From a virus (lineage: Duplodnaviria > Caudoviricetes), in IMG/VR virus record IMGVR_UViG_3300033149_002181, positions 1 to 52,861 of that record: a stretch of DNA of 52,861 nucleotides, one strand, 5' to 3'. Within the stretch, counting starts at the first letter, position 1. Each line of letters opens with the position of its first letter. Both the position numbers and the translations under genes were made by a program. Below, piece by piece: positions 12,527 through 46,066 of this stretch. The notes beneath the pieces are model-generated. The model had not been told where the DNA came from. It searched no databases and worked only from the letters and a program-made list of their open reading frames with translations.

Positions 12527-12865
12527 TCACTTTCCTTTCGCCTTGTCAAGATTAAGTGGAGCCAGCTCCTCCATCATACGTTCCTCTCGTTCTGCCCGCC
12601 TGTCTTCTTCTTCCGGCGTTAAGACTTTTCCAGAATGCTGTTTGTTTCCATGGTGAGTGCGCTCTGCGGAACCGATGAACTCAGCCCCGCAGATGGCACA
12701 CTGGTATGTTTCAGCCTTCTTCCCGACCGGGGCGAAATAGCCGAGGCGGACGAGCTTCTCATCATTCCGCGCGCCTACGAGCTCTACGATTTGTCCTCGG
12801 TCAAGCTCCTGTCCCGCATAGCCAAAGGGTCTCCTTGCCCAATAACGTTGCTTGGTAGTTGCCAT
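12527..12865 (-). CDS. Hypothetical protein with zinc-finger-like motif
   Basis: CAICG...HH; follows the capsid gene. Confidence 0.5.
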   Translation of the reverse strand: MATTKQRYWARRPFGYAGQELDRGQIVELVGARNDEKLVRLGYFAPVGKKAETYQCAICGAEFIGSAERTHHGNKQHSGKVLTPEEEDRRAEREERMMEELAPLNLDKAKGK

Positions 12866-13821
12866 TATACCACCGCCCCACTCATAAAGAGACCGGCATT
12901 TGTGCCGGTTGCTTTTTGGTCAAAATAGGTGTTAGCCTCGATGATATCCACCTCACGTTCCTCATCGCGCATCCGTTTGATATACTGAAGCGCATTGGCT
13001 ACTATTTGCCAGACGAAGGTATAACCGGCAGCAGGAGTTAGCAGAGACGGCCTCTCTGGAACGTAAATCATCAAAGCATTCTTGCCCCAAATCCTGGAAT
13101 ACGACACTGAGGATTCGGCAGTGCCCTCGGCAGAGGCAGTGTAAATTGCCCGACCGATCAGTACTTTGTCAAACTCAGCCAGCGAAGCAAACAGATCTTT
13201 GGTCATCTGTCCTTTCTGGGTGTACTTGATGGTGTCAATCAGATCCGGATGCCATTTGAGCTTAAGCCAAACCTGTTTCCCTAGTATGAGGGCGTTAGGT
13301 TCGCGGCCAATCAATGCCTCGACCGTGTCCTTGTAGTCGTCAAGATCAGTCAGCGGACTGGAGTTAGCATAGTCTGACCAAACGGTGAAGTCGGACCCGC
13401 CAGTCTTGTCGGTGCCCCAAACACCGGTCGTAAAAAAGTCGGTAGCGAACGCCACCTCACGCCGCATTTGGATTTTATCCGTCACCCACTCGGTTGCATC
13501 CCGGTCCAGGTTGAACGGAGCGTCCGCATTCTTCCTGGTCTCATCGTCGATCTCTTTCCGGATGGAAAAGCGGTCGCAGAAATACTTCGCGGTGGTTGTT
13601 ACCTTCCACCCACCACCAGCGGACTTAGTCCCCGGGGCCCTCAGTTTGGCCTCATCCCTAAACCAGTGAGACTGATCGTACTGCGGGATGATGTCAGACT
13701 GCTTCTGCACCGGCACGATCGGAAAGATCTGGTCGGCAATGTATTCCGGATTCTTGTACCCGATAGAAATATTGGTCAACAATTGGTCTACATGAAGCGT
13801 GCTTGCTACAGGATTAGGCAT
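12865..13821 (-). CDS. Major capsid protein (capsid E-like)
   Basis: 318 aa; HVDQLLTNISIGY...IADQIFPIVPV N-terminus typical of this capsid family; synteny. Confidence 0.88.
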   Translation of the reverse strand: MPNPVASTLHVDQLLTNISIGYKNPEYIADQIFPIVPVQKQSDIIPQYDQSHWFRDEAKLRAPGTKSAGGGWKVTTTAKYFCDRFSIRKEIDDETRKNADAPFNLDRDATEWVTDKIQMRREVAFATDFFTTGVWGTDKTGGSDFTVWSDYANSSPLTDLDDYKDTVEALIGREPNALILGKQVWLKLKWHPDLIDTIKYTQKGQMTKDLFASLAEFDKVLIGRAIYTASAEGTAESSVSYSRIWGKNALMIYVPERPSLLTPAAGYTFVWQIVANALQYIKRMRDEEREVDIIEANTYFDQKATGTNAGLFMSGAVV

Positions 13822-13852: not shown

Positions 13853-14245
13853 CTAGGTCGTGCTCAGCGTAAACGGCCCGGTCAGCAGTACACGAATAAC
13901 CGTCCCGTCGGCAGACGAAGCATCAAGCGCAATACCGGCGATATAGTTGGTGTCAGACGCTTTTTTCACTGCTTTGCCGCTTGCATCGGTGCCGACGTAA
14001 TCGCCAACGGCAATGTTGGTGCTGGAGCCGTCAGATACGACCTTGCTAATGCCCAGCACCCTTACTTGTGCCGCATGATACTGGGTCGGCTTGTTCTGCA
14101 ATACACCGATAGGCTTATCTGCCGCATTGTCACAGACATCAACTTGATCAGTACCACTCAATTCAACAAAGTAATATTGCTTTGCGCTCAGATCGTTCTC
14201 AGCCTTTGCGCTGATGTCGAATACAGCCATTTCGGTTGCCATCAA
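13853..14245 (-). CDS. Capsid decoration/cement protein
   Basis: IGVLQNKP...VGTDASGKAV...GIAL...DGTVIRVLL; directly upstream of the capsid gene. Confidence 0.75.
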   Translation of the reverse strand: MMATEMAVFDISAKAENDLSAKQYYFVELSGTDQVDVCDNAADKPIGVLQNKPTQYHAAQVRVLGISKVVSDGSSTNIAVGDYVGTDASGKAVKKASDTNYIAGIALDASSADGTVIRVLLTGPFTLSTT

Positions 14246-14256
14246 TATCTACCTCC

Positions 14257-15141
14257 TTAAATCCTAACCGCAGTCTCTTTGCGGTACTGTTCATAAAGCT
14301 GCGGGTTTTCAGCCAGCACTTTCGCCAGCGCGTCCATCCTGCTTAAGTTGGCGTTTTTCTGCACTAACCCCGCTGCCATGGCCTCGACTTTGGCAACAGC
14401 GGAGTCGCCAGCGGGCATGCCGCCTCGGCCAATCTCAGCATAGAGCGCGCCTTTCTCGATGGCTTCACTGGCCGCCTTCAGCACACCTTCAAGCTTGGTA
14501 TATTCTTCCGGCGCCTTTTCAGCCAAACCCTTCAGCACCAAACCAAATTCTTCCGGCTTGGTCGGCAGGTTGGTAAAGTCAGTCGCGGCCTTTTGCACGA
14601 ACTCCTTGCGAAGCTGCTTGTCGCGTTCTTCCTTAAGCACCTTCTCAAGCTCTTCGGCTTTCTTGATGGCTTCCTGCTGCTCTTTCCAGAGTGCCTCTAC
14701 CGCAGGACGAACTTCTTCCGGAATACCGGAAAAGTCATAGCTTCCGTCTTCCTTTTTGGTCGGTGCAGGATAACCATATTTCTTCTTCTTGTCTTCTTCT
14801 TCCTCGTCTTTTTTGTCCTTAGCCTTCTCGGTCGGTGCAGGATAGCCGTAGCCGGCCAACTCGGCCAGAGTCTTCATGATGTCCTTGGGCAAGGAGTCCT
14901 TATAAGCGTTGAGTAGTCGTAAAGCGCCTTTGACTGCATTCTGTGCCTTGTCGGATAGCTTGGCTGCTTTCAGGACTTCCTCCACTTTCTGCTCATCTTC
15001 AAGTTCAGTTTCTAAAACAGCCTTAAGAATTTCTTCCATTGAACTTCCCTCCTCAGATTTGTAAATAAAAAAGCGCTTTTTTACAGCGCCTCTTGGTACA
15101 AGACTAACTTCTGGAATTTCTAAATCACTTAATTGGTACAC
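14257..15141 (-). CDS. Scaffolding protein with N-terminal XkdF-like EVSLV segment
   Basis: Charged coiled coil; N-terminus LSDLEIPEVSLVPRGAVKKRFFIYKS; two YGYPAPT repeats. Confidence 0.7.
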   Translation of the reverse strand: MYQLSDLEIPEVSLVPRGAVKKRFFIYKSEEGSSMEEILKAVLETELEDEQKVEEVLKAAKLSDKAQNAVKGALRLLNAYKDSLPKDIMKTLAELAGYGYPAPTEKAKDKKDEEEEDKKKKYGYPAPTKKEDGSYDFSGIPEEVRPAVEALWKEQQEAIKKAEELEKVLKEERDKQLRKEFVQKAATDFTNLPTKPEEFGLVLKGLAEKAPEEYTKLEGVLKAASEAIEKGALYAEIGRGGMPAGDSAVAKVEAMAAGLVQKNANLSRMDALAKVLAENPQLYEQYRKETAVRI

Positions 15142-15153
15142 ATAACCACCCTC

Positions 15154-18100
15154 TTACGCTATTTGGATGTCAATAAACTCCACCTCCGGTAACTTTGGTT
15201 TGTCAATTGAGGTCCTCACGCCAAAACCACCAACAGAATAACTTGTTAGCCTTCTTTCTTCGACCTCTTTCCATAATCCATCGGCCTGAATTTTACTGCC
15301 GAGAATCCATGCCCCGGAATGGAATATCTCTCCGCCGCACTTAACCCTGTACGCCCTATGTGGCTTCCCTTCCATCGCCTTCTGCCAGTCATCATATGAG
15401 GGGTACGGGAATAGATAACTCTCGACAGGCACAGCATCGGCCTTCTTATGATGTCGATAGCCTAACAAACGAGATTTGATCAGCCAATTATGTGCCACCT
15501 GCTCAACATCTGCTGGACTTACCCAATCGTCCTGGGAATCAACTTGATAGGGATCCAACGCTACACCATACACAATTCGTCGGGGCTGATCGATTTTAAT
15601 GATCGGAGCCTGGTACTCTTTAGCAATTTTCGCTTTTGCCACATCAATTTTCTGTACGGGCTTACCTGGTTCATCAGCCCAAAGTAACCATTTTTGACCT
15701 TTCTCTTTTAGTTCGCTTATGACATCAGCGAGTTTGTGCGTTTTTGTATATGGTTCCTGCGATTCTGGCCGGTTTACTAACCATACTCTTCGCCCCTGTC
15801 CCAACGGAGCATATTGTATAAGTAAACGGCCTTTCAAGTGTTTGCCGTTCAAAAAAAGTTCACGTCCGTGTTCCCGGGCAAAAGAAAACTTGTACTCGCC
15901 ACCGTCAAGTTTAAAAAACTTTGAATAAGTTTTGCTCGTAGACCCGGGGCCTCCGGGTTCAGAAATATACGGACCTTTATCTGTAATGGTTATCCACCTA
16001 ACAGGTTGGAACAGTTTGAACTGGCCTTGTAGACTGTCATCAGGCGGTAATTCAAGCAGACGACTTCCGTACTCCGTCTTACGGATGTCTTCGGTATCGC
16101 CCTCAAAGACTGAGAACCCCCAAGCTGTCTCATCGTCTATCTGGAAGCGCAGGTCGCCGTGGACACTATGGTTGGTTTTCAATAGCTCTTCGTGGCTAAG
16201 TTTGGTTTCTTCCTCGCTCAGCCCGCGCCAGTGCATCTGATAAACCCATCTGCCTCGTCCAGATTTCGGGTACATGTTGTGCCATTCTTCTTCATACAAC
16301 TTCTCCGCTATTTCAGCCCGAGTGTCGCCTTCCTCGCCTAAACGATCAGCTTTTTCCACCTGTTCTAGTGCACGTTTAATTTGCTTTAGCTTCCTCGCTA
16401 CCTCCCCGCTGTCCCCGAACCGCCTAACCGCCATCGGGTGAGGCAAAACAAAATCCGCTCTTTCACCTAGAGCGGACTTAGCGGTCTGACCTAACGCAAC
16501 TATAATTTGCGGATTGGCTTTGTCTAGTTCGTTAAACAGCCAATCGCGCCATTTTTCTATTTCTTCTTTGCTTGGTTCGCGCACCCGACCTTTTTCATCG
16601 GTCAGGAACTGGGGAACTGCATTGGTGAGAAACACTTCATTAGGCTTGAGACCCAACGGTTTCAAATAAAGTTCTTTAAATGTTTCCCCGCTGGGGCCGG
16701 TAAACGGTTCCCCCCTAGCTGCCTCAACCCGGCCGGGAGAGGCACCTACAAAGACTAGTTTTGCGTTTTTAGGTCCCCGACTGGGAACTATGTCCTGCAT
16801 CGATTTCTGAAGCACCTGCCCGCGCTTCGCAACATCGATAGCTTGAGCAGCAGTGTAAGGTTCTTTTCGAGTATCATCCACATCAATTACACGAGCTCCA
16901 AGCCAAGCGAGAACTTTCTTCTGTTCGTCCGGGATAAGCTCCAGCACCTCGCACGTGATAATGTCGCCAACCTTGGCCTTAATGTTTGTAGAAAACGTCT
17001 TACCTAAATCAATGTACTTCTTGCCGTTTAGTTCCCGAACGTTGCGCCACTCCATACCTACGCTCGGCAGGAGACCGCCCCAATAGTTGTAGTCTCCAGC
17101 TTTCGTGCGCTGTACGTCAAGCACGATAACTTTCAGCTCAATAACTCGCTTTAGCTTGAACCACTCGTCGGTGGCCCCGCTCAGTTCGTATTTACCTCCG
17201 GCAGACTTCGCTACTAGCCCCTCGGAGCGGTCCTGGTCGAACGCCCAGCGAGCGGCCACCTTAGCTTCCTGTGGCGTCTTGCACCATTTCAAGGGAGAAA
17301 TAGTTAACAGCTTTCTGAGGTTCAGCGACTCCAATATCTTGCGCCTTTCCTTGAACGGTTTATCGCTCAAATCTTCTCCCCAGTACGGCACATCAAAGAC
17401 CGTCAAAATAGGCGTCTCGTTTTCAGCGAACTCTGGTTTCTCGCGGTTGAACTTCATTAGATCTGGCCTTGCCACCCGCTTACCGTCGCGCAGCATGCCC
17501 AAGTCGCAGTCTAGGATAAAGTCAGCGTTAAGCTTTTCCAAGACCGCTTTTATCTCGGGGAATTTGTGCAGTTGGTCTTTGCCATATTGCCCCTCAAACC
17601 AAAGCCGTAGCTGGCTGCCCTTTTTTTCGGCAATGCTCCTGAAACCATTATGCTTCGGCTCTACAGCTATCGGCCAGCGGTTTTTTGCCCACTCTAGCAG
17701 TTCGTCTATGGTGTAAGCTTCTGTGTATTCGGCCATGCTCGGTTTGGGCGGTACAAACTTCTCAAATGGCTCCAACCCCGCCTTGCTTACTGTCTCCGGC
17801 TTACGTAATATACCTCGGACATAAACCAAATCGTCATTCTGGATTTCCTCCAGCTTCTCAACCTCGAACTTCGGGCGGCCTTCAAGTAGGTTATCCTGCG
17901 TCCAAAAGACGAAGGTGGACTTATTCCAAAAGCTCTTGTGGTCGGGGTGGTTAAACGCGCCCTCTCCTTTCGTACTCGGCACTTCGAAGACAAACTTGCC
18001 GCCGGGCTTTAAAACCCGGTGGATTTCGACCATGATGTGCTCTTTATCCGCGAGATGCTCCAGGACGTGGTTTGCGCGTATTTCATCCGCGCTGTCGTCA

Positions 18101-18939
18101 GGATAGGGTATACCCTGCTCTAGGTCATATACTACATCAACCTGCGGGCCCGGTTCTTTATCGATTCCCGTATAGCCGTCGGGTTTAGAATCGCCACAGC
18201 CGAGATCTAGTTTAAGTGCGTCTCCTTTCACTACTTGGCGTCTCGGTTCCTCGCGCCGGAGAACTAGCGAGTAGCACGGTATGAAATCTGCATGGCTGCC
18301 TTGTGGCGAATCTATAAAATGGAGTATTCCTTTTTTCTCGGGGTCAAGCACCTTTCGCACCGGTAGCCAGACATTATCTGCATGGATCAGAAAGTTCTCA
18401 CCAGATTTATCCCTGTTTGCCCTGAATAGTACATCTATATCTTCCGGGTTTTCCTTGCCCACGGCTGCTGATCCCACAACAGAGACAAAGTTAGGAACAA
18501 CAACCACTTCCTGCGGCAGGCTTGCCAATTTCGTCTCTATACTCTGGGCTTTTTTCACGTCCTGGAGCTTCTTTGCTTCCTGCACCAGTTCACTGTTTTC
18601 GTCGTAGTCAAAGCCCCGGTGATCGAATTCCTCCATTACCCAGATGGCGGCATTGACAATCTCCTCCGCCGGTTCTTTACGTTTCTTGGCCGCACTATAC
18701 CACTGGTGCAGTCTAAGCCACGCTTGCCTTACCTCTTCATCCGGCGCCTCTTTTAGCTTATCAGGCCGTATTTCAGCCAGAGCCATTTTTTCTAAAAAAG
18801 ACGGTTCCTCCGGCTCGCGCCATCGGGCCTTACCACCAGCAGCGGGAAGAGCGGCCTGATGTATAGCGTTCCAGGCCCAGTCTGGAAGCAGCTCCTTTGC
18901 TTTTTCTAGAGCTGTCTCAAGGTATTCTTTGCTTGGCAT
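15154..18939 (-). CDS. Multidomain head-module protein: NTase, SAM methyltransferase, ATP-dependent DNA ligase, UDG-like, LigD phosphoesterase-like and XkdF-like protease domains
   Basis: VVGS...EDIDVLF; LDLGCG...HVLEHL...LKPGG; EPKHNGFR, FDV, EGLVAK, WFKLK plus OB fold; FVGASPG, TNAV, HP; QMH...HGDLRF; RRIVYGVALDP...SYSVGG. Confidence 0.82.
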   Translation of the reverse strand: MPSKEYLETALEKAKELLPDWAWNAIHQAALPAAGGKARWREPEEPSFLEKMALAEIRPDKLKEAPDEEVRQAWLRLHQWYSAAKKRKEPAEEIVNAAIWVMEEFDHRGFDYDENSELVQEAKKLQDVKKAQSIETKLASLPQEVVVVPNFVSVVGSAAVGKENPEDIDVLFRANRDKSGENFLIHADNVWLPVRKVLDPEKKGILHFIDSPQGSHADFIPCYSLVLRREEPRRQVVKGDALKLDLGCGDSKPDGYTGIDKEPGPQVDVVYDLEQGIPYPDDSADEIRANHVLEHLADKEHIMVEIHRVLKPGGKFVFEVPSTKGEGAFNHPDHKSFWNKSTFVFWTQDNLLEGRPKFEVEKLEEIQNDDLVYVRGILRKPETVSKAGLEPFEKFVPPKPSMAEYTEAYTIDELLEWAKNRWPIAVEPKHNGFRSIAEKKGSQLRLWFEGQYGKDQLHKFPEIKAVLEKLNADFILDCDLGMLRDGKRVARPDLMKFNREKPEFAENETPILTVFDVPYWGEDLSDKPFKERRKILESLNLRKLLTISPLKWCKTPQEAKVAARWAFDQDRSEGLVAKSAGGKYELSGATDEWFKLKRVIELKVIVLDVQRTKAGDYNYWGGLLPSVGMEWRNVRELNGKKYIDLGKTFSTNIKAKVGDIITCEVLELIPDEQKKVLAWLGARVIDVDDTRKEPYTAAQAIDVAKRGQVLQKSMQDIVPSRGPKNAKLVFVGASPGRVEAARGEPFTGPSGETFKELYLKPLGLKPNEVFLTNAVPQFLTDEKGRVREPSKEEIEKWRDWLFNELDKANPQIIVALGQTAKSALGERADFVLPHPMAVRRFGDSGEVARKLKQIKRALEQVEKADRLGEEGDTRAEIAEKLYEEEWHNMYPKSGRGRWVYQMHWRGLSEEETKLSHEELLKTNHSVHGDLRFQIDDETAWGFSVFEGDTEDIRKTEYGSRLLELPPDDSLQGQFKLFQPVRWITITDKGPYISEPGGPGSTSKTYSKFFKLDGGEYKFSFAREHGRELFLNGKHLKGRLLIQYAPLGQGRRVWLVNRPESQEPYTKTHKLADVISELKEKGQKWLLWADEPGKPVQKIDVAKAKIAKEYQAPIIKIDQPRRIVYGVALDPYQVDSQDDWVSPADVEQVAHNWLIKSRLLGYRHHKKADAVPVESYLFPYPSYDDWQKAMEGKPHRAYRVKCGGEIFHSGAWILGSKIQADGLWKEVEERRLTSYSVGGFGVRTSIDKPKLPEVEFIDIQIA

Positions 18940-18940
18940 T

Positions 18941-19834
18941 TCACAATTTCCTCCTGACTAACCCTTCTGTACATCGACATTGCGGATGTAAAATCGGACC
19001 CACAATCCCGCCTTCATATGCGCCTTCAATCGGAGCCCGTTTACCATCCATCGCCATGCATTGCTCACATGAACGTTCGTCGGGAGTATAAATCCATTCA
19101 CGTTCCATTTCTGCAGGATCAAGATACCCCTCATCTACCGCTTGTCTCCAGGCTTCTCGCTGTCCCTCATTAGCCGCCATCATGGTTTCTGTACGTGCAA
19201 TCACTTTTGACCGATAACGCAACAATTTCCGAGAATAACTATCAGCCATTTCATTTACTCGTTTTAATGATCGCGTGCCATCCTCTGCTAACCTGGCCCA
19301 ATAATTATCTACGGCACGCATCTGTCGCTCGGTAAGACCAATGTAATTTCGAATCTTCCTTGCCTGTTGATAAGGATGGCCACCTTCCTCAAAAGCTCGG
19401 CGAATTATTGCCTGAATAGCCTGTCGACTTTCCTCCGTTATCTGAGTGATAAGTTCTCCGGTATGCCGGTTAATAAACTCAACTGCACGCGGGTTAAGTA
19501 GGTCAAAACGAAGCTCCATTTTTAATCTCTTACTTAATCTTCTTACTGTTGCTTCTCCAGCTTTATTTATAATATTTTGAAAAATCTTTTTAAATGCCCA
19601 AAGACCGGCACCAAAAGCGACCCAGTCGATTGAGTTTTCAACGGAGGTTTGATTCCCTCTTTCTATACCTTCGGCCATTTCTTTTACCTTGACTTTCTCT
19701 TTAGTTTCGGTAACTGCTGATAAAAAAGATCTCTCAAAGTTGTCTTGTTCATCATCCGCTATACGATGTATCACACGCCATTCTGGACTTCTTGACTGAT
19801 CAGCTTTCAAAATAGGTTCGCGAAAAACAAACAC
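18941..19834 (-). CDS. Head morphogenesis protein (MuF/SPP1 gp7 family)
   Basis: IARTE, C..C and HPQCRC motifs; follows the portal gene. Confidence 0.9.
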   Translation of the reverse strand: MFVFREPILKADQSRSPEWRVIHRIADDEQDNFERSFLSAVTETKEKVKVKEMAEGIERGNQTSVENSIDWVAFGAGLWAFKKIFQNIINKAGEATVRRLSKRLKMELRFDLLNPRAVEFINRHTGELITQITEESRQAIQAIIRRAFEEGGHPYQQARKIRNYIGLTERQMRAVDNYWARLAEDGTRSLKRVNEMADSYSRKLLRYRSKVIARTETMMAANEGQREAWRQAVDEGYLDPAEMEREWIYTPDERSCEQCMAMDGKRAPIEGAYEGGIVGPILHPQCRCTEGLVRRKL

Positions 19835-19859: not shown

Positions 19860-21131
19860 TCATTCTTCTATACCTTCACTGGGTAGATTTGCCACCTCTA
19901 ATAAGTACTTCTCAAGTTCTTTGTTCGGGAATAAAGGCATTCCCGCCATCGCCAGTCGGGATATGAAATTGCTTAATTCCTCCAGACTAATGGACTCAAT
20001 GTCTCCATGCCTCAGCTCAGGATATTTTTCTATTTTGAATTCGTTCAACTTAAATAACCTCGGTACTGCATGAGTATTCAGCACGGCTTCAATTTCATCC
20101 AGAAAGGCGCCTATTGCAACGGCGAAAAGCTCCGTTTTTGAGCTTGCCAGTGCGAAACTACCCACCTTCTGAGTCCCCAACATAATAAAGTCCGCCAGTA
20201 CTGTTTGTGCTATCTGCGTATTATACCGTTGGATAATGGTGCTGGTATCGAACTGTCGTCTGCCTCCGGTAGAAAGCAACTGTATATCGTACAGCTTATT
20301 TCCTTCTTCATCATAGGCCAGCGGCATAACAATTCCTTCCTGCTGATCCCGGCGGATCTTGGTTACCAGACTCTTAAACGCATTTAGGACCGTAGTTTCA
20401 GCGTCTGTTGACGGATTTGCTACGTTAGGCGGTACCCAGACAACGGGGAGTCCAGCTAAATCGCGCTCTACACCGATACCCTCAATAGTCTCAATATTTT
20501 TCTTGAAATACCAGGGTTTGTAACAATTCCTCAGCATGCTCCGCCCCTGTGGCGAATTCTTCATCGATTCTGTCCTGAAAAGGAGCAGCTTCTCAATCGG
20601 TATCTCCCGGAGCTTATAGTCTGGCGGCGCTACTTGTCTTATGCCTTGGATCCCGCCTTCCTCATCGAATATCCATTCTTGTATTGAGTCTTGACTGCGA
20701 ATCGAAAACTTCCGCCAGCCTATTCTGCCGTCGTTATATTTGCTACGTTTTCTAGGATCCTGATTGTCTCCCAATCGACGCTTATATACAATCTCAAAAA
20801 CCGAGTAACCGTACACCAACATAGATAAAACTTCGCTTATGAAGTCCTGCCATGAATGGCTAGTATCATGGATACATTCCTCCAGAAACCTGGCTGCTTC
20901 TCTATCGGCGTTGCTGGCACCTGCTGCGTCAACCCGCCATGGAACTTGACGACATAGCATCCTTATGGCGAAAAGAATGGCACCGATTATCGGGTCGTTA
21001 TCAGCCATCTCCCTGTACACACGAGTAGCTTTAACGCCTTGTAAATCTGGAAGCCACTCTTCATATATATTTCCGCCCCATCTACTAAGGCCCGTAGATC
21101 CTAACATAGTATACAAGTCTATTTTAGCCAA
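19860..21131 (-). CDS. Portal protein (DUF935/Mu gp29-like)
   Basis: After TerL; YGYSVFEIVY, PQGRSMLR, ERDLAGLP and GSFALA motifs. Confidence 0.88.
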   Translation of the reverse strand: MAKIDLYTMLGSTGLSRWGGNIYEEWLPDLQGVKATRVYREMADNDPIIGAILFAIRMLCRQVPWRVDAAGASNADREAARFLEECIHDTSHSWQDFISEVLSMLVYGYSVFEIVYKRRLGDNQDPRKRSKYNDGRIGWRKFSIRSQDSIQEWIFDEEGGIQGIRQVAPPDYKLREIPIEKLLLFRTESMKNSPQGRSMLRNCYKPWYFKKNIETIEGIGVERDLAGLPVVWVPPNVANPSTDAETTVLNAFKSLVTKIRRDQQEGIVMPLAYDEEGNKLYDIQLLSTGGRRQFDTSTIIQRYNTQIAQTVLADFIMLGTQKVGSFALASSKTELFAVAIGAFLDEIEAVLNTHAVPRLFKLNEFKIEKYPELRHGDIESISLEELSNFISRLAMAGMPLFPNKELEKYLLEVANLPSEGIEE

Positions 21132-21134
21132 CTT

Positions 21135-22484
21135 TTATCGCCTCCAGCGGCTTTCACCGTCGATGCCAACAGGCGAGAGAATCGGCGTCTGCATGCCAGA
21201 CTTTACTGCCCAGCATGCTAATGCCAGACTCATCACACAGTCGTCATGCCGACCTTCCGGTGCTTCGGGCCGTACGTTCATTCCACGTCGTACCCGCCGG
21301 AAAAATCGAAGCTCATCCCTTATGGTTGTATTACTTGTCGGTAGAAGCAGCTTTTTTTGTTCGACCTGGATCATCAAGTTTGAAATAAGCTCCTCTCGGC
21401 TGCGTTGCGTGAATACAAACGGCACGCAGTCCTGTACCTGCTCCGCTACAGGATCGCCTACGCCCGTAGCATCAAGATAAACCTTAGCCGCATACTTTGA
21501 CTGCAGATTGTTCACTTGGGCCACAATATCACCGTAAAGCCTGCTGCGGTAGCGATACCACTCGACGATCCTGTATGGTGTCATTGTTATGTCCAATACT
21601 GTTATAACCGTGTAATCTTGATATTTTGCTAAATCCACACCGATGCTGTATACATGGCCTTGCTCCCGCGCGCCCTCAGGTCTATAATCTTCAAACACGT
21701 GCTGGAGAACTGACCAAGGAAAAACTATTGTATCGTCATCGATGAACTCCGCTAAGTACTCTACCCGGAAAGCTAACTCAGGAACTTCTTTGCGAATTCG
21801 TTCAACTTCTTCCAAATCCAGACGGGGGTTATCGAAAACCGTGGCATGAAAGCTTCGGTAGTAACCACTGGCATCATTTAACCCCTGTTGATAGAGCTGA
21901 TATATATATCCCTGGTTACCGTTAGGTGTGGTTTCAGCCCGGATTTTCCCTTTCCGATCTAGAACCATAGCCCTAATGACATCGTTATAAACTTTATCCT
22001 TTACGAATGCAGCTTCGGTAATGACAACTCCATCCGCACCTTTACCTCGGAGATAAACCCCGTCCCGGGCAGTAGACCGCGCCATAATCCGGCTCCCGTT
22101 GATAAGTTCAACTTTCGGAAAAGGAGACCACTTAAATTTTTTCCCCGGCACCAAAATGGAAAGCAGCGGGTTTTCCATCCGCTGCTCAAGCTCGCTAAAA
22201 TATATTTTCGCCTGATCCATACTGGGAGCCGTGATATACCAGCGCTGTTTTTGCTTAGTGGCGCATTCATGAAGTATATCCACCAAGGTAGTTAAAGTTT
22301 TACCGAAGCGTCGGCCAGCTACTTTTACTGAGACCTTGCCACCCAAGTTAACCGCCTTGGACTGTTTTTCTTCCAAAACCACGCCTAGAAACTTTTCAGC
22401 GAAATAAACTTTATCATTGCGACACCTTTTAAGCACATCTCTGGCCTTCCGTTGTTGCTCAACCGTCCATATCATCATCATCAT
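21135..22484 (-). CDS. terL: Terminase large subunit
   Basis: Walker A AGRRFGKT, LRG..AD, TTPNG motif C, nuclease GVDLA, DATGVG and HDDCVMSLALA; start probably in the MMMM run (22475-22484). Confidence 0.93.
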   Translation of the reverse strand: MMMMIWTVEQQRKARDVLKRCRNDKVYFAEKFLGVVLEEKQSKAVNLGGKVSVKVAGRRFGKTLTTLVDILHECATKQKQRWYITAPSMDQAKIYFSELEQRMENPLLSILVPGKKFKWSPFPKVELINGSRIMARSTARDGVYLRGKGADGVVITEAAFVKDKVYNDVIRAMVLDRKGKIRAETTPNGNQGYIYQLYQQGLNDASGYYRSFHATVFDNPRLDLEEVERIRKEVPELAFRVEYLAEFIDDDTIVFPWSVLQHVFEDYRPEGAREQGHVYSIGVDLAKYQDYTVITVLDITMTPYRIVEWYRYRSRLYGDIVAQVNNLQSKYAAKVYLDATGVGDPVAEQVQDCVPFVFTQRSREELISNLMIQVEQKKLLLPTSNTTIRDELRFFRRVRRGMNVRPEAPEGRHDDCVMSLALACWAVKSGMQTPILSPVGIDGESRWRR

Positions 22485-22965
22485 CCCAAAGTGATTGAAA
22501 AGCGTCGACCAAACGGGATTGCGGGTCATCACCGATAAGTTCTTGCCGTGTTCGCATTGCCTGGCGTATTTCGCTCTGCAACTTCTCCCGTAGCTGGACC
22601 AGTGCAAGTGGCGGATTTCTCCTCTCTTTAATGAGGTCTTTTAGCCAAGCTTGTGTTGCTCGACTAAGTTCATAGTTATCCGTTATAGTAGCATCCAATA
22701 TTTCAACGTCACTCAGCCTTTTCTTGACCTGCTGTTGCATTTGTTCCTGGCTCTTCCAGTACTGCTCCCTAACTTCAGCTTTAATGTCAAAATGTTCATT
22801 CATGTGTTTCCAGATGGACTGGTGGCTTATTTTTTCCCCATGATCTTCAAACAGCTTTACAGATGCGGCTCTGGGACTAAGACCTTCCTCTTTGCACCAT
22901 TTTTCTATTTCAGCCCGGCGCTGACTGTTGCATACCTTGCACCGGGAAGAATATCCAGTCGGCAC
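22459..22965 (-). CDS. Putative terminase small subunit
   Basis: Directly upstream of terL; CKVC...H..H plus HTH-like region; GTG start at 22965 after AGGAGGTGG. Confidence 0.65.
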   Translation of the reverse strand: MPTGYSSRCKVCNSQRRAEIEKWCKEEGLSPRAASVKLFEDHGEKISHQSIWKHMNEHFDIKAEVREQYWKSQEQMQQQVKKRLSDVEILDATITDNYELSRATQAWLKDLIKERRNPPLALVQLREKLQSEIRQAMRTRQELIGDDPQSRLVDAFQSLWDDDDDMDG

Positions 22966-23800: not shown

Positions 23801-24064
23801 TTATACTCGCTCCCAAATTGCCACATAAAAATAACCTGCCGGAAACTTATATACACTCATTAATTTAAATAAAATTTCTTTCGGAATTTCCCAATGCCCA
23901 TTTTCGTACATGCATAATGTACCTAAATCAATTCCTAATTGTTCAGCAGCTTCTTCCAAAGTTAAACCCCTGGCTTGTCTGGCATCAACAAGACGCTCTG
24001 GAACAATATAGTCAACTATTTCTCGTTTTCTAACACGTACTTTAAAATCATGAAATAAACTCAT
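23801..24064 (-). CDS. XRE-family HTH protein
   Basis: RLVDARQARGLTLEEAAEQLGI...YENG. Confidence 0.8.
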   Translation of the reverse strand: MSLFHDFKVRVRKREIVDYIVPERLVDARQARGLTLEEAAEQLGIDLGTLCMYENGHWEIPKEILFKLMSVYKFPAGYFYVAIWERV

Positions 24065-24309
24065 TTTTAATGTTCCCTAATATGTTATTTTTCTGAATTA
24101 AATTTTATTTCCTCAACTTGAATCTGCTTTCCCTCCGGCATCATTCGAATCCCGTCTATAATAGCACTCATAATTCGTGCAGTATTTATTTCTTTGGGGA
24201 ATTTAATAATACAATCAATTTTTATTTTCATTACTGCTATTTCCTTTTAAAATATTTTTAAGCGGAGGAGTGGGGAGCTCCCTGTATGGAAAAACAGATA
24301 ACCTGATTT

Positions 24310-25002
24310 TTACCATCCTTTTCGGATAGCTCTCTCTGATACCACTATAGCACAGAAACATACCCTCTGTAGTATTGAATTTGTATGGAACGTGATTTTT
24401 TTAACAAAACATCGATACTTCGGGGAAAATAGAGATATTATGTATGCCCAGACATCCTCCCCTTTCCAACCAAAAACCGGTCGGCATTTCCATATTTCCT
24501 CCGTCTTTGAAAAATAAAACAATCCATATTTACCACTGTATTTTCGGCCTAAACTTTCCTCTCCTCGTAAACCAAATATTAAACAATCTATATCAAATTC
24601 GTTAATTGCTTTCTTTATACCGGCCATTAAATTATTTTTTAAAATTTCACGTTTGATATTACTTAACCCGCCTGCTTCCCGATATATTTCAAAAATTTCT
24701 TTCGGCGTTTTAACTCGATGATAATTCAATTTATACTTTTGCGCATAATTATCATACATTTCAACAGCTTCTTCTAAATCTCCGCCTTGACCCCGATCGA
24801 TATTTATAATCAATATATCCGGCTTAATCTGCCTTGCAATATCCACACAAACAAGACTATCTTTGCCAAAACTAAAACTAACTGCTGGATTTCGGCATGT
24901 TTTAATCGCTTGTTTAAGCGCATTTTGCGCTTCTTCCAAGCGGCGCTTAAATCTTGGTAATAACGCTGTCATAAAATACTGATCTTTTTGCCATTGTTCC
25001 AT
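24310..25002 (-). CDS. cysH: CysH-like PAPS reductase family protein associated with type IV-B Cas; C-terminus possibly truncated
   Basis: PP-loop VSFSFGKDS, GLRGEES..R and CRPVFGWKGEDVWAYI motifs. Confidence 0.85.
   Translation of the reverse strand: MEQWQKDQYFMTALLPRFKRRLEEAQNALKQAIKTCRNPAVSFSFGKDSLVCVDIARQIKPDILIINIDRGQGGDLEEAVEMYDNYAQKYKLNYHRVKTPKEIFEIYREAGGLSNIKREILKNNLMAGIKKAINEFDIDCLIFGLRGEESLGRKYSGKYGLFYFSKTEEIWKCRPVFGWKGEDVWAYIISLFSPKYRCFVKKITFHTNSILQRVCFCAIVVSERAIRKGW
24344..24390 (-). promoter_or_regulatory. Putative late promoter (extended -10 TGCTATAGT)
   Basis: TGn-TATAGT without a clear -35, pointing towards the packaging genes. Confidence 0.4.
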
Positions 25003-25871
25003 CTCCTATACCCCCAGACAGTGTAAAGAATCATCGGCATAACAATAAATATCCGCGCCGTCGCATACCATGTCCATATCTGCGTCGCTGTTTTAGTTGC
25101 AAATAATGGCCATGAAAATAATGCGGCAACGGATATAACAACTGCCAATATGTCACCAGATAGATCTTGCAATGCCGCAATACATGAATCGAGTGTCGAC
25201 GTTGCCACGGCTATGATTATAATCGCAAATAATATTTGTGAAATTGCGCCTTGAGATAGAAAGGCGAAAAATACCAGGCTTAAATATAGGCCAAAAGCCA
25301 AAGATGCCAAAAGCCACGGATTGACACCTTTAATCCTTTCTGCACGTTGAAATTGCTGGCCGTCGAGAAATGGCCCGGCCATCAATCCTATACAAGCAGA
25401 TACAACCCAGCTAACATTAACCGGCTGATAATTTAAAACATTAAGATTAAATTTGCCTGTCAAAATAACAAGCACCAATCCACCAACCATAGCTAAATAT
25501 TGCCATTGATCACTTTCAACAGAAAACTTAAATTTATATTTATATGTCAGAAGAAATATTATGGTCGCGACAGTAGTTGCCCATCCGTTGCCAATATAAG
25601 TTGCCATGATCCTAATATTAATCCATATACAAAATATTTGTATCCCAATCATAGCTAATTTGATAAATATACTATTCTTTAATTTGATATAACCCGGATA
25701 TTTTCTTACGAACGCCCCATAAATAAATAGTGATAAAATGTTACATACCGCCCATGGCAGAAAAGAATGTAAGCCCATAGTTTTTAAAATACTAAAGCTC
25801 ACGCCCAAACTAACTCCCCAGGCCCAGGAAGCGGCTGCACTAATACCTAATTTAAACTGTTTGATTTGCAT
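24969..25871 (-). CDS. Polytopic membrane protein, sodium:solute symporter-like
   Basis: About 9-10 hydrophobic segments; SAAASWAWG, SVESDQWQY, GPFLDGQQFQRA and STLDS resemble SSS-family motifs. Confidence 0.6.
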   Translation of the reverse strand: MQIKQFKLGISAAASWAWGVSLGVSFSILKTMGLHSFLPWAVCNILSLFIYGAFVRKYPGYIKLKNSIFIKLAMIGIQIFCIWINIRIMATYIGNGWATTVATIIFLLTYKYKFKFSVESDQWQYLAMVGGLVLVILTGKFNLNVLNYQPVNVSWVVSACIGLMAGPFLDGQQFQRAERIKGVNPWLLASLAFGLYLSLVFFAFLSQGAISQILFAIIIIAVATSTLDSCIAALQDLSGDILAVVISVAALFSWPLFATKTATQIWTWYATARIFIVMPMILYTVWGYRRWNNGKKISIL

Positions 25872-26526
25872 TGCATGCTAACCTCCGATCGTTTGGTATT
25901 AATACTCTCGTCCACTGCCACGCAAGCCAATATGGTGAACGAATACCCATTTCAACATCTCCGTTTTCATCGGGAATGGCCCGGAGGTAAGAAAGATCCT
26001 CCGGCCACTCCCCGACTGTCCAACGTACCACTCGTCCAAACCCCTGGCTACGTTTTTTACCGATGTGAGTCACGTATTTTAGCAATATTTCTATTTTGTT
26101 TTTTTCTCCTACTGCATACCATTCCAGCTTTGGCATAAGATATGTCACCAGCGGCATTCGATAGTTTTTATATTGACCTGACTTAACATTGACCTTTCCG
26201 CGTTTTTTGCCGAAGTCAATGTATTTCTGCGCGTCATCAAAATCCAATCTTTTATGCCAGTGCACTATCTCTTCGCGTTGCGGTTTTCCGCAGGCAAACG
26301 AACAAGCCCAATACCAGTCATCATCTTCGCCTCGTTTTTCAAGCGGTAAATCAGGGACTATTAAATTTTCCGGCATAATACTGCTTTGAGAAGCAATCAT
26401 AGCTTCAGGGTGATTCAATCTAATCCAAACCTCAGCCAGAATTGAGTCGAGAGGCAGAAAAAGATCATATGTTGCTATTTTCCCAGTCTGCATATATGCA
26501 GTAATTTTCAGTGGTTGCATATTCAT
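25852..26526 (-). CDS. csf3: Type IV CRISPR-associated Csf3 (Cas5 group RAMP)
   Basis: PLKITA...LPLDSILA, WACS, G.YKNYRMP, WYAVG, G-rich loop IGKKRSQGFGRV, RSPYW. Confidence 0.88.
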   Translation of the reverse strand: MNMQPLKITAYMQTGKIATYDLFLPLDSILAEVWIRLNHPEAMIASQSSIMPENLIVPDLPLEKRGEDDDWYWACSFACGKPQREEIVHWHKRLDFDDAQKYIDFGKKRGKVNVKSGQYKNYRMPLVTYLMPKLEWYAVGEKNKIEILLKYVTHIGKKRSQGFGRVVRWTVGEWPEDLSYLRAIPDENGDVEMGIRSPYWLAWQWTRVLIPNDRRLACNANQTV

Positions 26527-32581: not shown

Positions 32582-32936
32582 TCAAGCCCTCTCTGCACCG
32601 TCTGCACCCGCCGAAGGTGTCTCCATGCTTTTTTCTTCGCTAGCTCCGGACTTTGTGCCGGGACCCGCATTGTAGAAGGCCAAGGCGGTCAGATAGTCGC
32701 CGTTTGCTTTGTCATAACAATATTTTAAAAATTGGATTCCTACCTCGAAAACCTGATCTAAGTTCCGGAAATCACCGGTTGGCCGAAGGATTTTAAACCG
32801 ACCATATGTAACCTGGATCGCCAACCTCTCACCAATCTATCTCAGCTTTGAGATCTGCTATTTTTTGAAATTGGCAGTAGCAGACGACACAGGCAACGAT
32901 CAGAGCAGTGAGGATAAGGGATTTTAAAACGTTCAT
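32582..32936 (-). pseudogene. Degraded lytic transglycosylase (SLT)-like gene
   Basis: Signal-like N-terminus from ATG 32936 stops early; another frame carries QV...GIQFL...GDYLTALAFYNAGPG. Confidence 0.5.
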
Positions 32937-43993: not shown

Positions 43994-44014
43994 CTACCAT
44001 AAACTTTTATTTTG

Positions 44015-44044
44015 AGTATAACACAATAAAATAGAGTATGTCAA
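44015..44044 (-). promoter_or_regulatory. Lytic (cro) promoter in the immunity switch
   Basis: TTGACA, 18 nt, TATACT with extended TG; gagtat/atactc half-sites nearby may be operators. Confidence 0.6.
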
Positions 44045-44137
44045 TATTTTTTATAGTAATTTATTTATATATACTCATAAATCCAGTATAATACTTACTA
44101 ATATTTCTTGTATTTTCAGGAGGGAGCATGATATGAT

Positions 44138-44473
44138 ATGTTTAAAGAAAGATTAAAATTATTACGAATTGAAAAAGGATTAACTCAGGAACAACTGGGC
44201 AAAATGGTTAATCTTGCCCAACAAACAATAAGCCATTATGAGAAAGGTGCACTCCAACCTGATTTGAAGTCTTTAGTAGAATTTGCAAAGATATTTCAGA
44301 CAACAACAGACTATTTATTAGGAGTTACTAATGATCGATATAAACCCGAATATGCCAATACAGCTCATAAATTACTAAATGAACTAACGGAAAAAGAAAA
44401 AATGTATGTAAAGTCTTTCTTAAAATATTTAATAGCGCAGCGCGACGAACAAGCAGCAGCTGGGGGAAAGTAG
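44138..44473 (+). CDS. CI-like XRE repressor
   Basis: RLKLLRIEKGLTQEQLG...ISHYEKG...TTDYLLG. Confidence 0.9.
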   Translation: MFKERLKLLRIEKGLTQEQLGKMVNLAQQTISHYEKGALQPDLKSLVEFAKIFQTTTDYLLGVTNDRYKPEYANTAHKLLNELTEKEKMYVKSFLKYLIAQRDEQAAAGGK

Positions 44474-44617
44474 CGCTTTTTACCCCGCGAAATTAGGAGG
44501 TGGTGGAAGAGGTACTGTAAGAATAATTCTGGAGGGCCTTTTAAGTAAAAGATTATCGAAATAAGGAGGAGTGTTAAAACGAATAGAATCAAAAGATACT
44601 ACAGTACTAGTATTATT

Positions 44618-45331
44618 ATGTTAGTAGTATTGATAATGAAGTGCATATTATCAACTCCGGCAAACGCTAGCGAATGGAGGTCGGGACTCTCTTGTTCCAG
44701 CAAAGGACTCGGGATCAAATTAATTGAATATATAAATGGAGATTGGGGGTTTTTTGCAGACTCATTTATAACTGAAGATTCTAACAAAGAACTGGAAACA
44801 GTAACAACTAGGATAGGAGTGAAGATTTATTTAAATAAAATTAAGCGAGGTTATTTTTTAAATGGATCTATTTCATCTTATGAAAGTACCACGGGAGAAG
44901 GGCCTATAGATGGTTTTTCGCTTGGTTGTGGTTATATATATGACCTAAGTGATTCTTGGTTTGCTAATATTGAAACCGGATTTCTTTATTTAGGTAATAA
45001 TAATTCTGGATTTTATTTGGCAGGGTCTTGCGACCTTTCTTGGACATCACTTTTTAAAAACAGAAGGAAGAAAAGAGAAGAACAGTTAGCTAAAACAGGG
45101 TGGTCTAGGGAAATTATAAATGCAGTTATGGAACATAAAATAAGAGTAGGAATGACCATGGATCAAGTTTTAGAAAGCTGGGGGAATCCAGATTCAAAGT
45201 ATACCAGCGGTAATTATCAAATTTGGCAATATGAAACATTTTATTCTTATAGTGGTTATTATCATAGCTACACCCTTTATTTTACTAATGGTATACTAAA
45301 TCACTGGGACGAATATGAAAGTAATAATTAA
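44618..45331 (+). CDS. Secreted/outer-membrane-like protein with C-terminal SmpA/OmlA-like domain
   Basis: Signal peptide (ANA-SE), amphipathic beta strands, IRVGMTMDQVLESWGNP...WQY motif. Confidence 0.55.
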   Translation: MLVVLIMKCILSTPANASEWRSGLSCSSKGLGIKLIEYINGDWGFFADSFITEDSNKELETVTTRIGVKIYLNKIKRGYFLNGSISSYESTTGEGPIDGFSLGCGYIYDLSDSWFANIETGFLYLGNNNSGFYLAGSCDLSWTSLFKNRRKKREEQLAKTGWSREIINAVMEHKIRVGMTMDQVLESWGNPDSKYTSGNYQIWQYETFYSYSGYYHSYTLYFTNGILNHWDEYESNN

Positions 45332-45390
45332 TTGATTGCATAAGCTTAACGTTAATAATAAAGCATAAAAATAAGGGAGGGGGAACTATT

Positions 45391-46017: not shown

Positions 46018-46020
46018 ATT

Positions 46021-46040
46021 AAGCCCGGTCTCCGGGCTTT
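46021..46040 (+). terminator. Intrinsic terminator
   Basis: aagcccgg-tct-ccgggctt followed by T. Confidence 0.7.
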
Positions 46041-46066
46041 TAAAATAATGAATAGGTGGTGATCTC

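Follow-up and report, generated by a model that had tools for sequence, protein, structure and literature searches.

How a phage prohead protease comes to carry a chain of DNA-repair-type enzymes, and whether these enzymes are cut apart from it, are the questions raised by the complete uncultured virus genome described here, an IMG/VR record of 52,861 bases (IMGVR_UViG_3300033149_002181) which is referred to below as the window. Its head module codes for a polyprotein of 1261 amino acids (aa), P0001, whose last domain is an XkdF-type protease. According to the original prediction, made from the sequence alone, a recurring hydrophobic-x-K-(A/S/G) motif marks the domain boundaries of this protein, and the phage protease cuts after Lys to release individual enzymes inside the capsid. 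Our analysis makes a proposal of this kind probable: the XkdF protease would cut after Lys, dismantle the scaffold and separate the cargo enzymes in the procapsid. We observed, in the window and its relatives, a modular anatomy, an enrichment of the motif that is specific both to Lys and to linkers, its conservation across variable architectures, and a model of a protease-scaffold complex that passes its controls. The polyprotein and its parts, in the order of the chain, are listed here, with an arrow at the presumed cut.

15154-18939, minus strand: putative cargo-protease polyprotein (P0001), 1261 aa, defined by the list of open reading frames (ORFs), its translation, Pfam and PHROG domains and 64 homologues of variable architecture
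18550-18939, minus strand: all-helical N-terminal domain, aa 1-130, ending VKK↓A (K130); AlphaFold helices 4-139, predicted local distance difference test (pLDDT) about 80-90 except at 35-49
18226-18549, minus strand: putative minimal Pol-beta-type nucleotidyltransferase, aa 131-238, ending VVK↓G (K238); G-S...D-x-D signature
17782-18225, minus strand: class I S-adenosylmethionine (SAM) methyltransferase, aa 239-386, ending VSK↓A (K386); Pfam Methyltransf_11/23/31, confident fold at 243-379
16804-17781, minus strand: ATP-dependent DNA ligase (adenylation and OB domains), aa 387-712, ending LQK↓S (K712); Pfam DNA_ligase_A_M (PF01068), E 1.2e-15
16351-16803, minus strand: uracil-DNA glycosylase (UDG)-superfamily domain (family 4 / UdgX-like fold), aa 713-863, ending VEK↓A (K863); Pfam UDG PF03167, E 2.4e-23
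15619-16350, minus strand: LigD-type 3'-phosphoesterase fold by Foldseek, aa 864-1107, then the joint VAK↓A (K1102) and IAK↓E (K1107)
15157-15618, minus strand: XkdF-type (Peptidase_S78_2) prohead serine protease, aa 1108-1261, including IIK↓I (K1115); Pfam PF14550

The structure of P0001 was predicted with AlphaFold in two halves, using alignments of homologues and blind to the motif (mean pLDDT 83.4 and 89.6). The domains first named from the sequence are largely borne out, as Pfam recognises a class I methyltransferase (266-326), an ATP-dependent DNA ligase (402-597), a UDG (719-841) and Peptidase_S78_2 (1113-1242), and Foldseek adds the LigD phosphoesterase fold. The ligase, in which K429 is invariant among homologues, matches archaeal, human and LigD ligases (including 6nhx and 1vs0) with E values of 1e-13 to 1e-10. 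The phosphoesterase (residues about 873-1095) was recovered by its fold only (3n9b, 3n9d and 3p43; E 1.1e-6 to 1.6e-6; template-modelling score by target 0.63-0.79), with no sequence match in Pfam (E <= 10) or by phmmer against the PDB; its H-x-D-x-R residues are nearly invariant among homologues. The UDG domain matches 6ajo and 1ui1 (E about 1e-9), 1l9g and 4zbx. Family 4 UDGs hold a 4Fe-4S cluster through four Cys ligands, and they carry an acidic residue at the motif position where P0001 has G-A-S-P-G. Because aa 713-863 contain no Cys at all, glycosylase activity of this domain is uncertain, and it may represent a non-canonical or inactive glycosylase. Foldseek also matches it to the UDG-like domain of a phage family-A DNA polymerase (9qhs).

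The two N-terminal domains are less well defined. The nucleotidyltransferase of the original prediction has an invariant signature among homologues (G156-S157...D167-x-D169) and a weak Atlas lead to NTP_transf_2 (score 0.87-0.88), but no Pfam match at E <= 10, and phmmer against the PDB returned nothing useful. Residues 140-225 are poorly modelled (pLDDT in the region only 53-74), and since the evidence is otherwise confined to the signature and this lead, the assignment of aa 140-225 is a plausible one. No Pfam family of archaeo-eukaryotic primase (AEP)-type primase-polymerases was found in P0001, nor in aa 1-240 at E <= 10. The helical domain at the N terminus, modelled as residues 1-139, is conserved and has no Pfam or PDB sequence match.

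By its sequence, the polyprotein is a member of the XkdF protease family: PF14550 matches with 57.0 bits, the cut-off being 24, and reaches 61.4 bits when the genome is searched, and the HK97-type protease profile PF04586 gives no match in P0001 at E <= 0.01. Among 50 sequences, S1235, H1163 and K1115 are nearly invariant and H1150 (in A-H) is kept in the consensus; S1235 and H1163 form a candidate catalytic pair. The chain closes with a segment, EVEFID (1253-1258), which is modelled as a β-strand and is a shorter look-alike of the N-terminal element of the scaffold described below. When P0001 was compared by tblastn with 50,697 phage records, 30 records matched, all through a single domain and none covering at least 80% of the query.

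All of the tetrapeptides on which the proposal was built are present in P0001, namely VKKA (128-131), VVKG (236-239), VSKA (384-387), LQKS (710-713), VEKA (861-864), IAKE (1105-1108) and IIKI (1113-1116), and a further VAKA occurs at 1100-1103. The pattern [VILMFYW]xK[ASG] occurs 13 times in the protein, compared with 7.1+-2.6 in shuffles (p 0.024), and the narrower [VIL]xK[AS] nine times, compared with 2.95 expected (p 0.003). Versions with E, R, D or Q in place of K are not enriched in P0001. The modest excess of the broad motif, together with the presence of a loose hydrophobic-x-K in 29.5% of 11-residue windows, could suggest chance or composition as the whole explanation; the scaffold, linker, Bacillus-tail, joint-conservation and T4 controls presented below disfavour it so clearly that we give it practically no weight.

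The positions of the motif coincide to a large extent with the weakest inter-domain stretches of the AlphaFold models, which are 226-239, a dip at 381-390, 712-714, 868-872 and 1100-1109. K238, K386, K712 and K1102/K1107 lie inside such low-confidence segments (pLDDT below 50 at 226-239 and 712-714, and 67 for the block 1100-1109). A further candidate, LEKA at aa 11-14, was rejected: it lies within helix 4-17, and the motif occurs in this column in 13 of 41 sequences, or in 4 of 18 when homologues whose matching residue is 15 or fewer residues from an end are dropped.

The family was then taken as a whole. Among 8000 scored candidates, 64 homologues were found at E <= 0.001 (identities 30-80%), and an alignment of 64 sequences was made, from which only the most distant one, P0065, was excluded. 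Their architectures vary. The methyltransferase or the UDG domain is absent in some, and others have gained a D12 adenine methyltransferase, a metallo-β-lactamase-fold domain, LigT-type 2H phosphoesterases, an RNA-ligase family domain or extra N-terminal modules. The original prediction called for a comparison of linkers with domain interiors across homologues that carry different cargo, and would have fallen had the motif been equally frequent inside domains; the motif proved to be clearly denser in the linkers. In the AlphaFold-defined linkers of the 64 sequences, [VIL]xK[ASG] occurs 95 times in 4399 residues (2.16 per 100), compared with 304 times in 65,537 core residues (0.46 per 100), a 4.7-fold difference. 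With E, R, D or Q in place of K, the pattern has no excess in the linkers of the 64 homologues and is flat or depleted. Shuffling within 345 linker segments gave 37.1 expected motifs for 119 observed (3.2-fold), with ratios of 0.72 for the E control and 0.41 for the R control. The corresponding ratios in the cargo cores are 1.19 for the N-terminal helical domain, 0.74 for the nucleotidyltransferase, 0.50 for the methyltransferase, 0.94 for the ligase, 0.82 for the UDG domain and 0.51 for the phosphoesterase.

The protease core (aa 1120-1258; window 15157-15580) is itself enriched in the motif (62 compared with 23.2 expected in 56 sequences, ratio 2.67), owing to a conserved I-E-K-A ahead of A-H and an L-x-K-S after it. 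These copies are possibly sites of self-digestion, or merely the conserved surroundings of the active site.

Conservation of the individual joints was scored as the presence of hydrophobic-x-K within +-4 residues; averaged across the alignment positions this measure is 0.25, and its 95th percentile is 0.80. The motif is kept at K238 in 59 of 62 homologues, at K386 in 50 of 62, at K712 in 47 of 62, at K863 in 39 of 49 (mostly as K↓Q or K↓A) and at K1115 in 57 of 58; at K130 its conservation is moderate (only 36 of 61). The joints keep hydrophobic-x-K while the flanking sequence varies. Between phosphoesterase and protease the conserved joint is K1107, where the motif is found within +-2 residues in 48 of 56 homologues; K1102 (VAKA), matched in only 9 of 58, was discarded as a conserved joint. 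The Lys context of the predicted rule is right, but the restriction to A, S or G in the following position (P1', the Lys itself being P1) is too narrow, since this position varies and is often Q, E, V or I. The family is better described by [V/I/L]-x-K with a preference for a small residue at P1', as far as can be read from the alignments.

Homologues of different architecture are joined precisely at these positions. In those which lack the methyltransferase, the I-V-K at the end of the nucleotidyltransferase runs straight into the A-L-E-P-G that begins the ligase; in the window this A-L-E-P-G follows V-S-K. Extra N-terminal modules end in I-D-K, L-M-K, V-E-K or V-L-K, just ahead of the shared N-terminal domain, and a module of ~107 residues inserted after K863 starts after K↓A-D or K↓G-D and ends I-E-K↓A-D or L-E-K↓A-D. 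In total, 15 of the 21 inserted modules carry hydrophobic-x-K at their end (-8 to +2 residues; binomial P 9e-5, several of the sequences being close kin), for a background of 0.295, which is the share of 11-residue windows holding a loose hydrophobic-x-K.

The second presumed substrate is the scaffold, encoded immediately downstream of the polyprotein.

14257-15141, minus strand: scaffold-like protein, 294 aa, with 8 hydrophobic-x-K-[ASG] sites

The IYKS, ILKA and IEKG noted earlier in this protein are indeed present, at aa 26, 38 and 228, and the Lys sites as a set fall at aa 28, 40, 58, 161, 184, 204, 222 and 230. In the window scaffold alone, Lys ranks first among P1 residues (8 compared with 2.5 expected, z 3.8). 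For a wider comparison, plus-strand ORFs were called in 82 IMG/VR loci and assigned by BLAST to the head proteins of the window; ORFs touching the end of a locus, ORFs covering less than half of the reference and near-duplicates were dropped. The hydrophobic-x-K-[ASG] motif was distributed as follows.

Scaffold, 47 sequences: 394 observed, 111.3 expected (3.5-fold)
Polyprotein, 42 sequences: 373 observed, 248.4 expected
MuF, 30 sequences: 63 observed, 35.7 expected
Portal, 34 sequences: 67 observed, 66.6 expected (ratio 1.01)
Cement protein, 31 sequences: 24 observed, 24.0 expected
Capsid protein, 34 sequences: 34 observed, 43.0 expected (ratio 0.79)

In the scaffolds, 19 residues had expected counts high enough for listing at P1, and of these Lys alone is enriched; Glu is equally abundant, yet its ratio is 0.67, and that of Arg is 1.04. 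The P3 position favours Ile (3.9-fold) and Val (2.4-fold), and P1' favours Ser and Ala. K28 is invariant in 24 aligned scaffolds, and several more Lys residues are nearly so. The TerL, portal and capsid protein of the window contain no match to the motif. An avoidance of the motif in shell proteins, which this might suggest, was rejected: the portal, capsid and cement proteins of relatives are near expectation, and the zeros of the window are partly luck.

The MuF protein shows a related, less specific pattern.

18941-19834, minus strand: MuF, 297 aa, PF04233 only
19802-19813, minus strand: ILKA, MuF aa 8-11, possible end of a short N-terminal propeptide

The ILKA was part of the original prediction and is found at the position given. 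In 27 of 29 non-redundant MuF homologues a hydrophobic-x-K falls in the first 20 residues, a count of our own, set against no background and with uncertain start codons; the N-terminal peptide so defined is 4-18 residues long and closes with hydrophobic-x-K, the next residue being A, R, K or some other. This pattern suggests that MuF carries a short propeptide.

The main rival to the proposal is one of partial processing, in which the Lys code serves to destroy the scaffold and to free the protease (at K1107/K1115), the enzymes ahead of the protease remain joined in a single multi-domain repair protein, whether packaged or not, and the linker Lys residues are kept for some other reason. The strongest signals are those of the scaffold (394 compared with 111) and of the protease N terminus (K1115, 57 of 58), K130 and K863 lie in helices, and bacterial LigD works as a fused ligase-phosphoesterase-polymerase, all of which is in keeping with this view. 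We nevertheless consider it unlikely: at K238, K386 and K712, all in low-confidence linkers, 76-95% of homologues keep the site while the flanks vary, modules inserted between cargo domains bring their own site, and the cargo cores are neutral or depleted in the motif.

The same signal appears in XkdF proteins that carry no cargo. The XkdF-like protease of Bacillus phage vB_BtS_B83 has the same layout at the start of the protease, and its tail is crowded with the motif. From 120 XkdF-like homologues, of which 119 are longer than 330 aa, dereplication left 24, and their C-terminal tails contain 175 motifs compared with 29.6 expected (5.9-fold), with Lys first among P1 residues. The statistic was also applied to the T4 core proteins gp22, gp67 and gp68, where Glu came first (14 compared with 4.3, z 4.9). 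The prohead proteases of T4 (gp21), phiKZ and SPN3US cut after Glu, as stated in a passage of PMC5694885; since Glu, the P1 residue of gp21, ranks first in the T4 proteins, a specificity already known is recovered by the statistic. For HK97 and T5, a passage of a 2026 paper that cites others (PMC13517437) states that both S78 proteases cleave after Lys. In the literature searched, neither the specificity of an XkdF-type protease nor a protease-fused repair polyprotein was found in print; a paper on JBD30 and a review of jumbo phages contributed nothing about specificity. One annotated relative, L084, a 'DNA methyltransferase/prohead protease' of Rhizobium phage RHph_Y1_11 (MN988558, 92105-92743), is only 212 aa long; the protease stands at its start, with the same hydrophobic-x-K↓A-E-D context just ahead of it, and its annotation seems to be inherited from phrog_1530, which mixes methyltransferase-protease fusions.

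These results also bear on the possibility that the motif is no protease site. Its place at module boundaries would then have a structural or evolutionary cause, for instance a helix or strand cap followed by a small residue, or a microhomology favouring domain shuffling, and in scaffolds it would stem from the periodicity of amphipathic helices or from a repeat that binds the capsid. Domain swaps do occur exactly at the motif, the scaffolds are helical with an abundance of K, A and E, and MuF is enriched for several polar P1 residues. Against this, Glu is as common as Lys in the scaffolds and yet depleted in the motif context, and Arg is flat. The recurrence of the Lys signal in the unrelated-looking Bacillus XkdF tails, the success of the identical statistic in picking the true P1 in T4, and the reported after-Lys cutting of related S78 proteases, as far as the cited passage goes, likewise make this explanation quite improbable.

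What would bring the polyprotein into the head is suggested by the N terminus of the scaffold.

15058-15120, minus strand: scaffold N-terminal strand element, aa 8-28, candidate protease-docking tag

The element has the pattern E-V-S-L-V...G-A-[NV]...basic residues, F-x-hydrophobic-x-K↓S, with E11, S13, V15, A19, F24 and K28 invariant in 24 aligned scaffolds, and it is present in 52 scaffold ORFs of related loci. In the window it stands on the separate scaffold gene. In three relatives (L076, L077 and L078, P0048-like) it is fused directly behind the protease of the polyprotein, and in Bacillus XkdF proteins (L083; phage B83) it is N-terminal. In three others (L001, L002 and L065) it opens the next gene, the polyprotein stopping 8 residues past the Ser-motif G-G-x-G (L001-type). 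The arrangement looks like a protease fold that is split or permuted across genes.

We modelled the complex of protease residues 1094-1261 with scaffold residues 1-60 in three runs, with three controls, using alignments of our own making. The interface score, ipSAE, was 0.68 (median of the three runs), compared with 0.00 for the best control, and passes a mark reached among solved complexes by 58 of 80 and among mismatched pairs by 2 of 110, counts that hold only roughly because of the author-made alignments. The runs share at least 53% of their contacts, and in them scaffold residues 1-19 contact protease residues including 1234-1237, adjoining S1235. The model indicates that the parts fit, binding being a separate matter; since fused relatives exist, the pass may mirror an intramolecular arrangement. 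Together, the fused relatives and the complex model suggest that the N-terminal strand of the scaffold is the route of loading.

The junction between the two genes was inspected for a route to a fused product. In the window the polyprotein and scaffold ORFs share a frame, with one TAA and four codons between them (window 15139-15156, minus strand), and a Shine-Dalgarno-like GAGGGTGG precedes the scaffold GTG in the same interval. Stop-codon readthrough joining the two proteins was rejected, because only 3 of 36 related loci are in frame. In a further group of fairly close kin (a G6 run in L027, L028, L033, L034, L035, L038, L039, L040, L045, L053 and L073, and G5 in L031), the scaffold frame is already open, with no stop, from the catalytic-Ser motif of the protease onwards and overlaps the last 14-17 polyprotein codons in the +1 frame, the frames parting at a conserved G run just past F-S-I-G-G-R-G. 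This run is a candidate site of programmed +1 frameshifting or slippage that would make a polyprotein-scaffold fusion.

It could also be argued that the chain is cut without its products being capsid cargo, the enzymes being freed in the cytoplasm late in infection to process DNA before packaging, so that the fusion would serve for co-expression and processing. The evidence here stops short of encapsidation, and by our estimate the capsid volume disfavours many copies. Against this, the gene fills the prohead-protease slot between MuF and scaffold, relatives fuse the polyprotein to the scaffold, and the model places the scaffold strand against the protease. Prohead proteases are, moreover, generally active only within proheads, as established for HK97 and T4. 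We hold this alternative to be of low probability.

Several points weigh against our proposal and were considered with it. The phage is known here from sequence alone, and since the statistics count related sequences, the z-scores and binomial P values are inflated. Not every joint is a convincing linker: K130 belongs to the final long helix of the N-terminal domain, close to its end, K863 is at the end of a predicted helix, 4-5 residues ahead of the pLDDT dip at 868-872, and K1115 is in a confident β-strand of the protease (1107-1117). The IIKI site of the original prediction is thus present and nearly invariant, but it is not in a linker; being invariant to this degree within a confident strand, its Lys may be structural or catalytic rather than a cleavage site, judging from the model. 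Conserved copies of the motif also occur within domains (K340, K578, K647, K921 and K1147), 6 of the 21 inserted modules lack the end signal, and the enrichment in MuF as a whole extends to Q, E, R and D and is not specific to Lys. The scaffold partner in the complex model has a pLDDT of at least 45 that falls below 50 in one or more runs, and its fold is modelled with uncertainty. The after-Lys statement on HK97 and T5 is second-hand and concerns the separate Pfam family S78. Finally, a capsid sized for 53 kb would, by our estimate, have little room for cargo, so that either the copy number would be low or pieces would leave. On balance, the Lys-cleaved cargo polyprotein first proposed gains from the Lys- and linker-specific enrichment, the bracketing of modules, the saturation of scaffolds, the recurrence in Bacillus XkdF proteins and the after-Lys match of S78, and loses from the moderate conservation of K130 and the placement of IIKI in a strand.

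From this evidence we infer cutting, encapsidation, retention and a cargo role for the enzymes, in the following sequence. The C-terminal protease domain would dock on the conserved N-terminal strand of the scaffold, and because the protease does so (in some relatives as part of one polypeptide), the whole chain would enter the assembling procapsid. Once active, the protease would cut after the Lys of [V/I/L]-x-K, with A, S, G or Q usually at P1'. The scaffold would be chopped into small peptides at about ten sites, MuF would lose its short N-terminal peptide, and the polyprotein would be severed at K238, K386, K712, K863 and K1107, perhaps also at K130 and K1115. The putative nucleotidyltransferase, the SAM methyltransferase, the ATP-dependent DNA ligase, the UDG-like domain and the LigD-type 3'-phosphoesterase would be freed as separate folded proteins, presumed to be too big to exit the shell, and would consequently travel with the DNA. 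On entry into a new host the cargo could act on the DNA, for example in end healing and sealing, circularisation or the repair of nuclease damage.

A bolder form of this proposal is possible, although we find it doubtful. Here the protease fold and the loading signal would be split over two genes, and the scaffold strand, lying beside the catalytic Ser, would both recruit the chain and license cutting; relatives would reach the same link by direct fusion or, in one clade, by the apparent programmed +1 frameshift at the G6 run. The Lys code would amount to a plug-and-play delivery system for a DNA end-healing kit of ligase, 3'-phosphoesterase, nucleotidyltransferase, UDG-like domain and methyltransferases, injected with the genome in order to circularise or repair it ahead of host nucleases.

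If the code is true, [V/I/L]-x-K would predict maturation cuts in many phages and prophage-like particles with XkdF-type proteases, and this way of loading phage heads, with a shuffled set of DNA ligase, phosphoesterase, glycosylase and methyltransferase modules attached to the protease, would be widespread and undescribed; 123 related stretches were confirmed in IMG/VR, and 64 protein clusters were found. Temperate phages could then inject their own DNA-repair or anti-restriction kit, and chosen proteins could potentially be packaged in capsids, as the T4 targeting sequence has been used.

The polyprotein is embedded in a head module on the minus strand, in the order TerL, portal, MuF, polyprotein, scaffold, cement protein and capsid protein. 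The remaining members are as follows.

21135-22607, minus strand: TerL
19860-21131, minus strand: Mu-type portal
13853-14245, minus strand: cement protein
12865-13821, minus strand: lambda-E-type capsid protein

From its gene set, which includes an integrase, a tape-measure protein, a DnaB-like helicase, a DnaD-like loader, RecT, an SbcC-like protein and a 614-aa DNA methyltransferase, the phage looks like a temperate siphophage. The methyltransferase is a second one, separate from that of the polyprotein, and lies in the replication module (32933-34777, minus strand; phrog_67, E 7.5e-59). No tRNA was found in a scan of the 52,861-base record, and the Ku profile PF02735 was absent from it; the host may have a Ku. 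Stretches of low G+C content occur at 1-2000, 24001-26000 and 44001-46000 (0.34-0.37, compared with about 0.47 elsewhere). The GC skew is reversed in the last of these, which adjoins the plus-strand integrase region (44618-47197), and a 300-aa ORF at 24969-25871 has no PHROG match.

Among known systems, the closest are the canonical XkdF proteins (Bacillus phage vB_BtS_B83 gp09 and PBSX XkdF), which belong to the same PF14550 family with 27-28% identity by tblastn. They possess the same strand element with its hydrophobic-x-K↓S, followed by the protease start hydrophobic-hydrophobic-T/L-K↓[AS]-D, and the same crowding of the Lys motif in the scaffold-like tail. In these proteins strand element, protease and scaffold tail form one chain of ~390 aa without cargo, whereas in the window the protease comes after ~1100 aa of enzymes, and a separate gene encodes the strand element with the scaffold.

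The HK97 protease is said to use a C-terminal targeting tail, as reportedly described by Duda in 2013. HK97 gp4 and T5 pb11 (S78) resemble the present protease in their cutting after Lys, reported in a passage of PMC13517437, and in that the protease is co-assembled into the prohead. They act on the delta domain that belongs to the capsid protein itself and bear no cargo enzymes, and the window protease has no PF04586 match. In T4, where gp21 (S77) acts with gp22, gp67 and gp68, CTS-tagged internal proteins and Alt, and in phiKZ and SPN3US, a protease likewise dismantles the core and trims head-retained, ejected proteins, and the code is similarly short (a hydrophobic or small residue, x, P1), as parts of PMC5694885 and PMC3012670 describe. 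The P1 residue is Glu in T4 and would be Lys here, where the E version is not enriched in linkers or scaffold, and the protease families differ. T4 cargo consists of separate small proteins, each with an N-terminal targeting peptide of 10-20 aa, whereas here the enzymes are chained to the protease; unlike in T4, the shared N-terminal tag is on the scaffold and not on the cargo domains.

The Dar proteins of phage P1 are large enzymes, including a methyltransferase/helicase. Like the enzymes of the window they are DNA-directed, and DarA, DarB, Hdf and others travel in the phage head and enter with the DNA, which they protect (PMC12810830). They are encoded by separate genes and incorporated in a defined order, with no protease-fused polyprotein, and the likeness is one of description. 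MuF-fused polymorphic toxins of temperate phages also place variable C-terminal effectors on a conserved head-assembly protein (Jamet et al. 2017, PMC5576092); there the carrier is MuF and the load a single toxin, whereas here the carrier is the protease and the load a string of DNA-repair-type enzymes, the MuF of the window being a plain protein of 297 aa with no effector fused to its C terminus.

In bacterial LigD an ATP-dependent ligase and a 3'-phosphoesterase are likewise found in one chain, to which the window adds a putative nucleotidyltransferase. LigD differs in its domain order and in its AEP-type polymerase, in place of which the window has the minimal GS/DxD nucleotidyltransferase, and the phage lacks Ku. 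Mycobacteriophages reportedly use non-homologous end joining for genome circularisation. The system described here would work like the prohead protease of T4 or phiKZ with its ejected head proteins, and like the Dar cargo of phage P1, while standing outside those families. What appears to be new is the chain of repair-type enzymes on a protease, the shuffling of modules at Lys-marked joints and a readable code with Lys in the P1 position.

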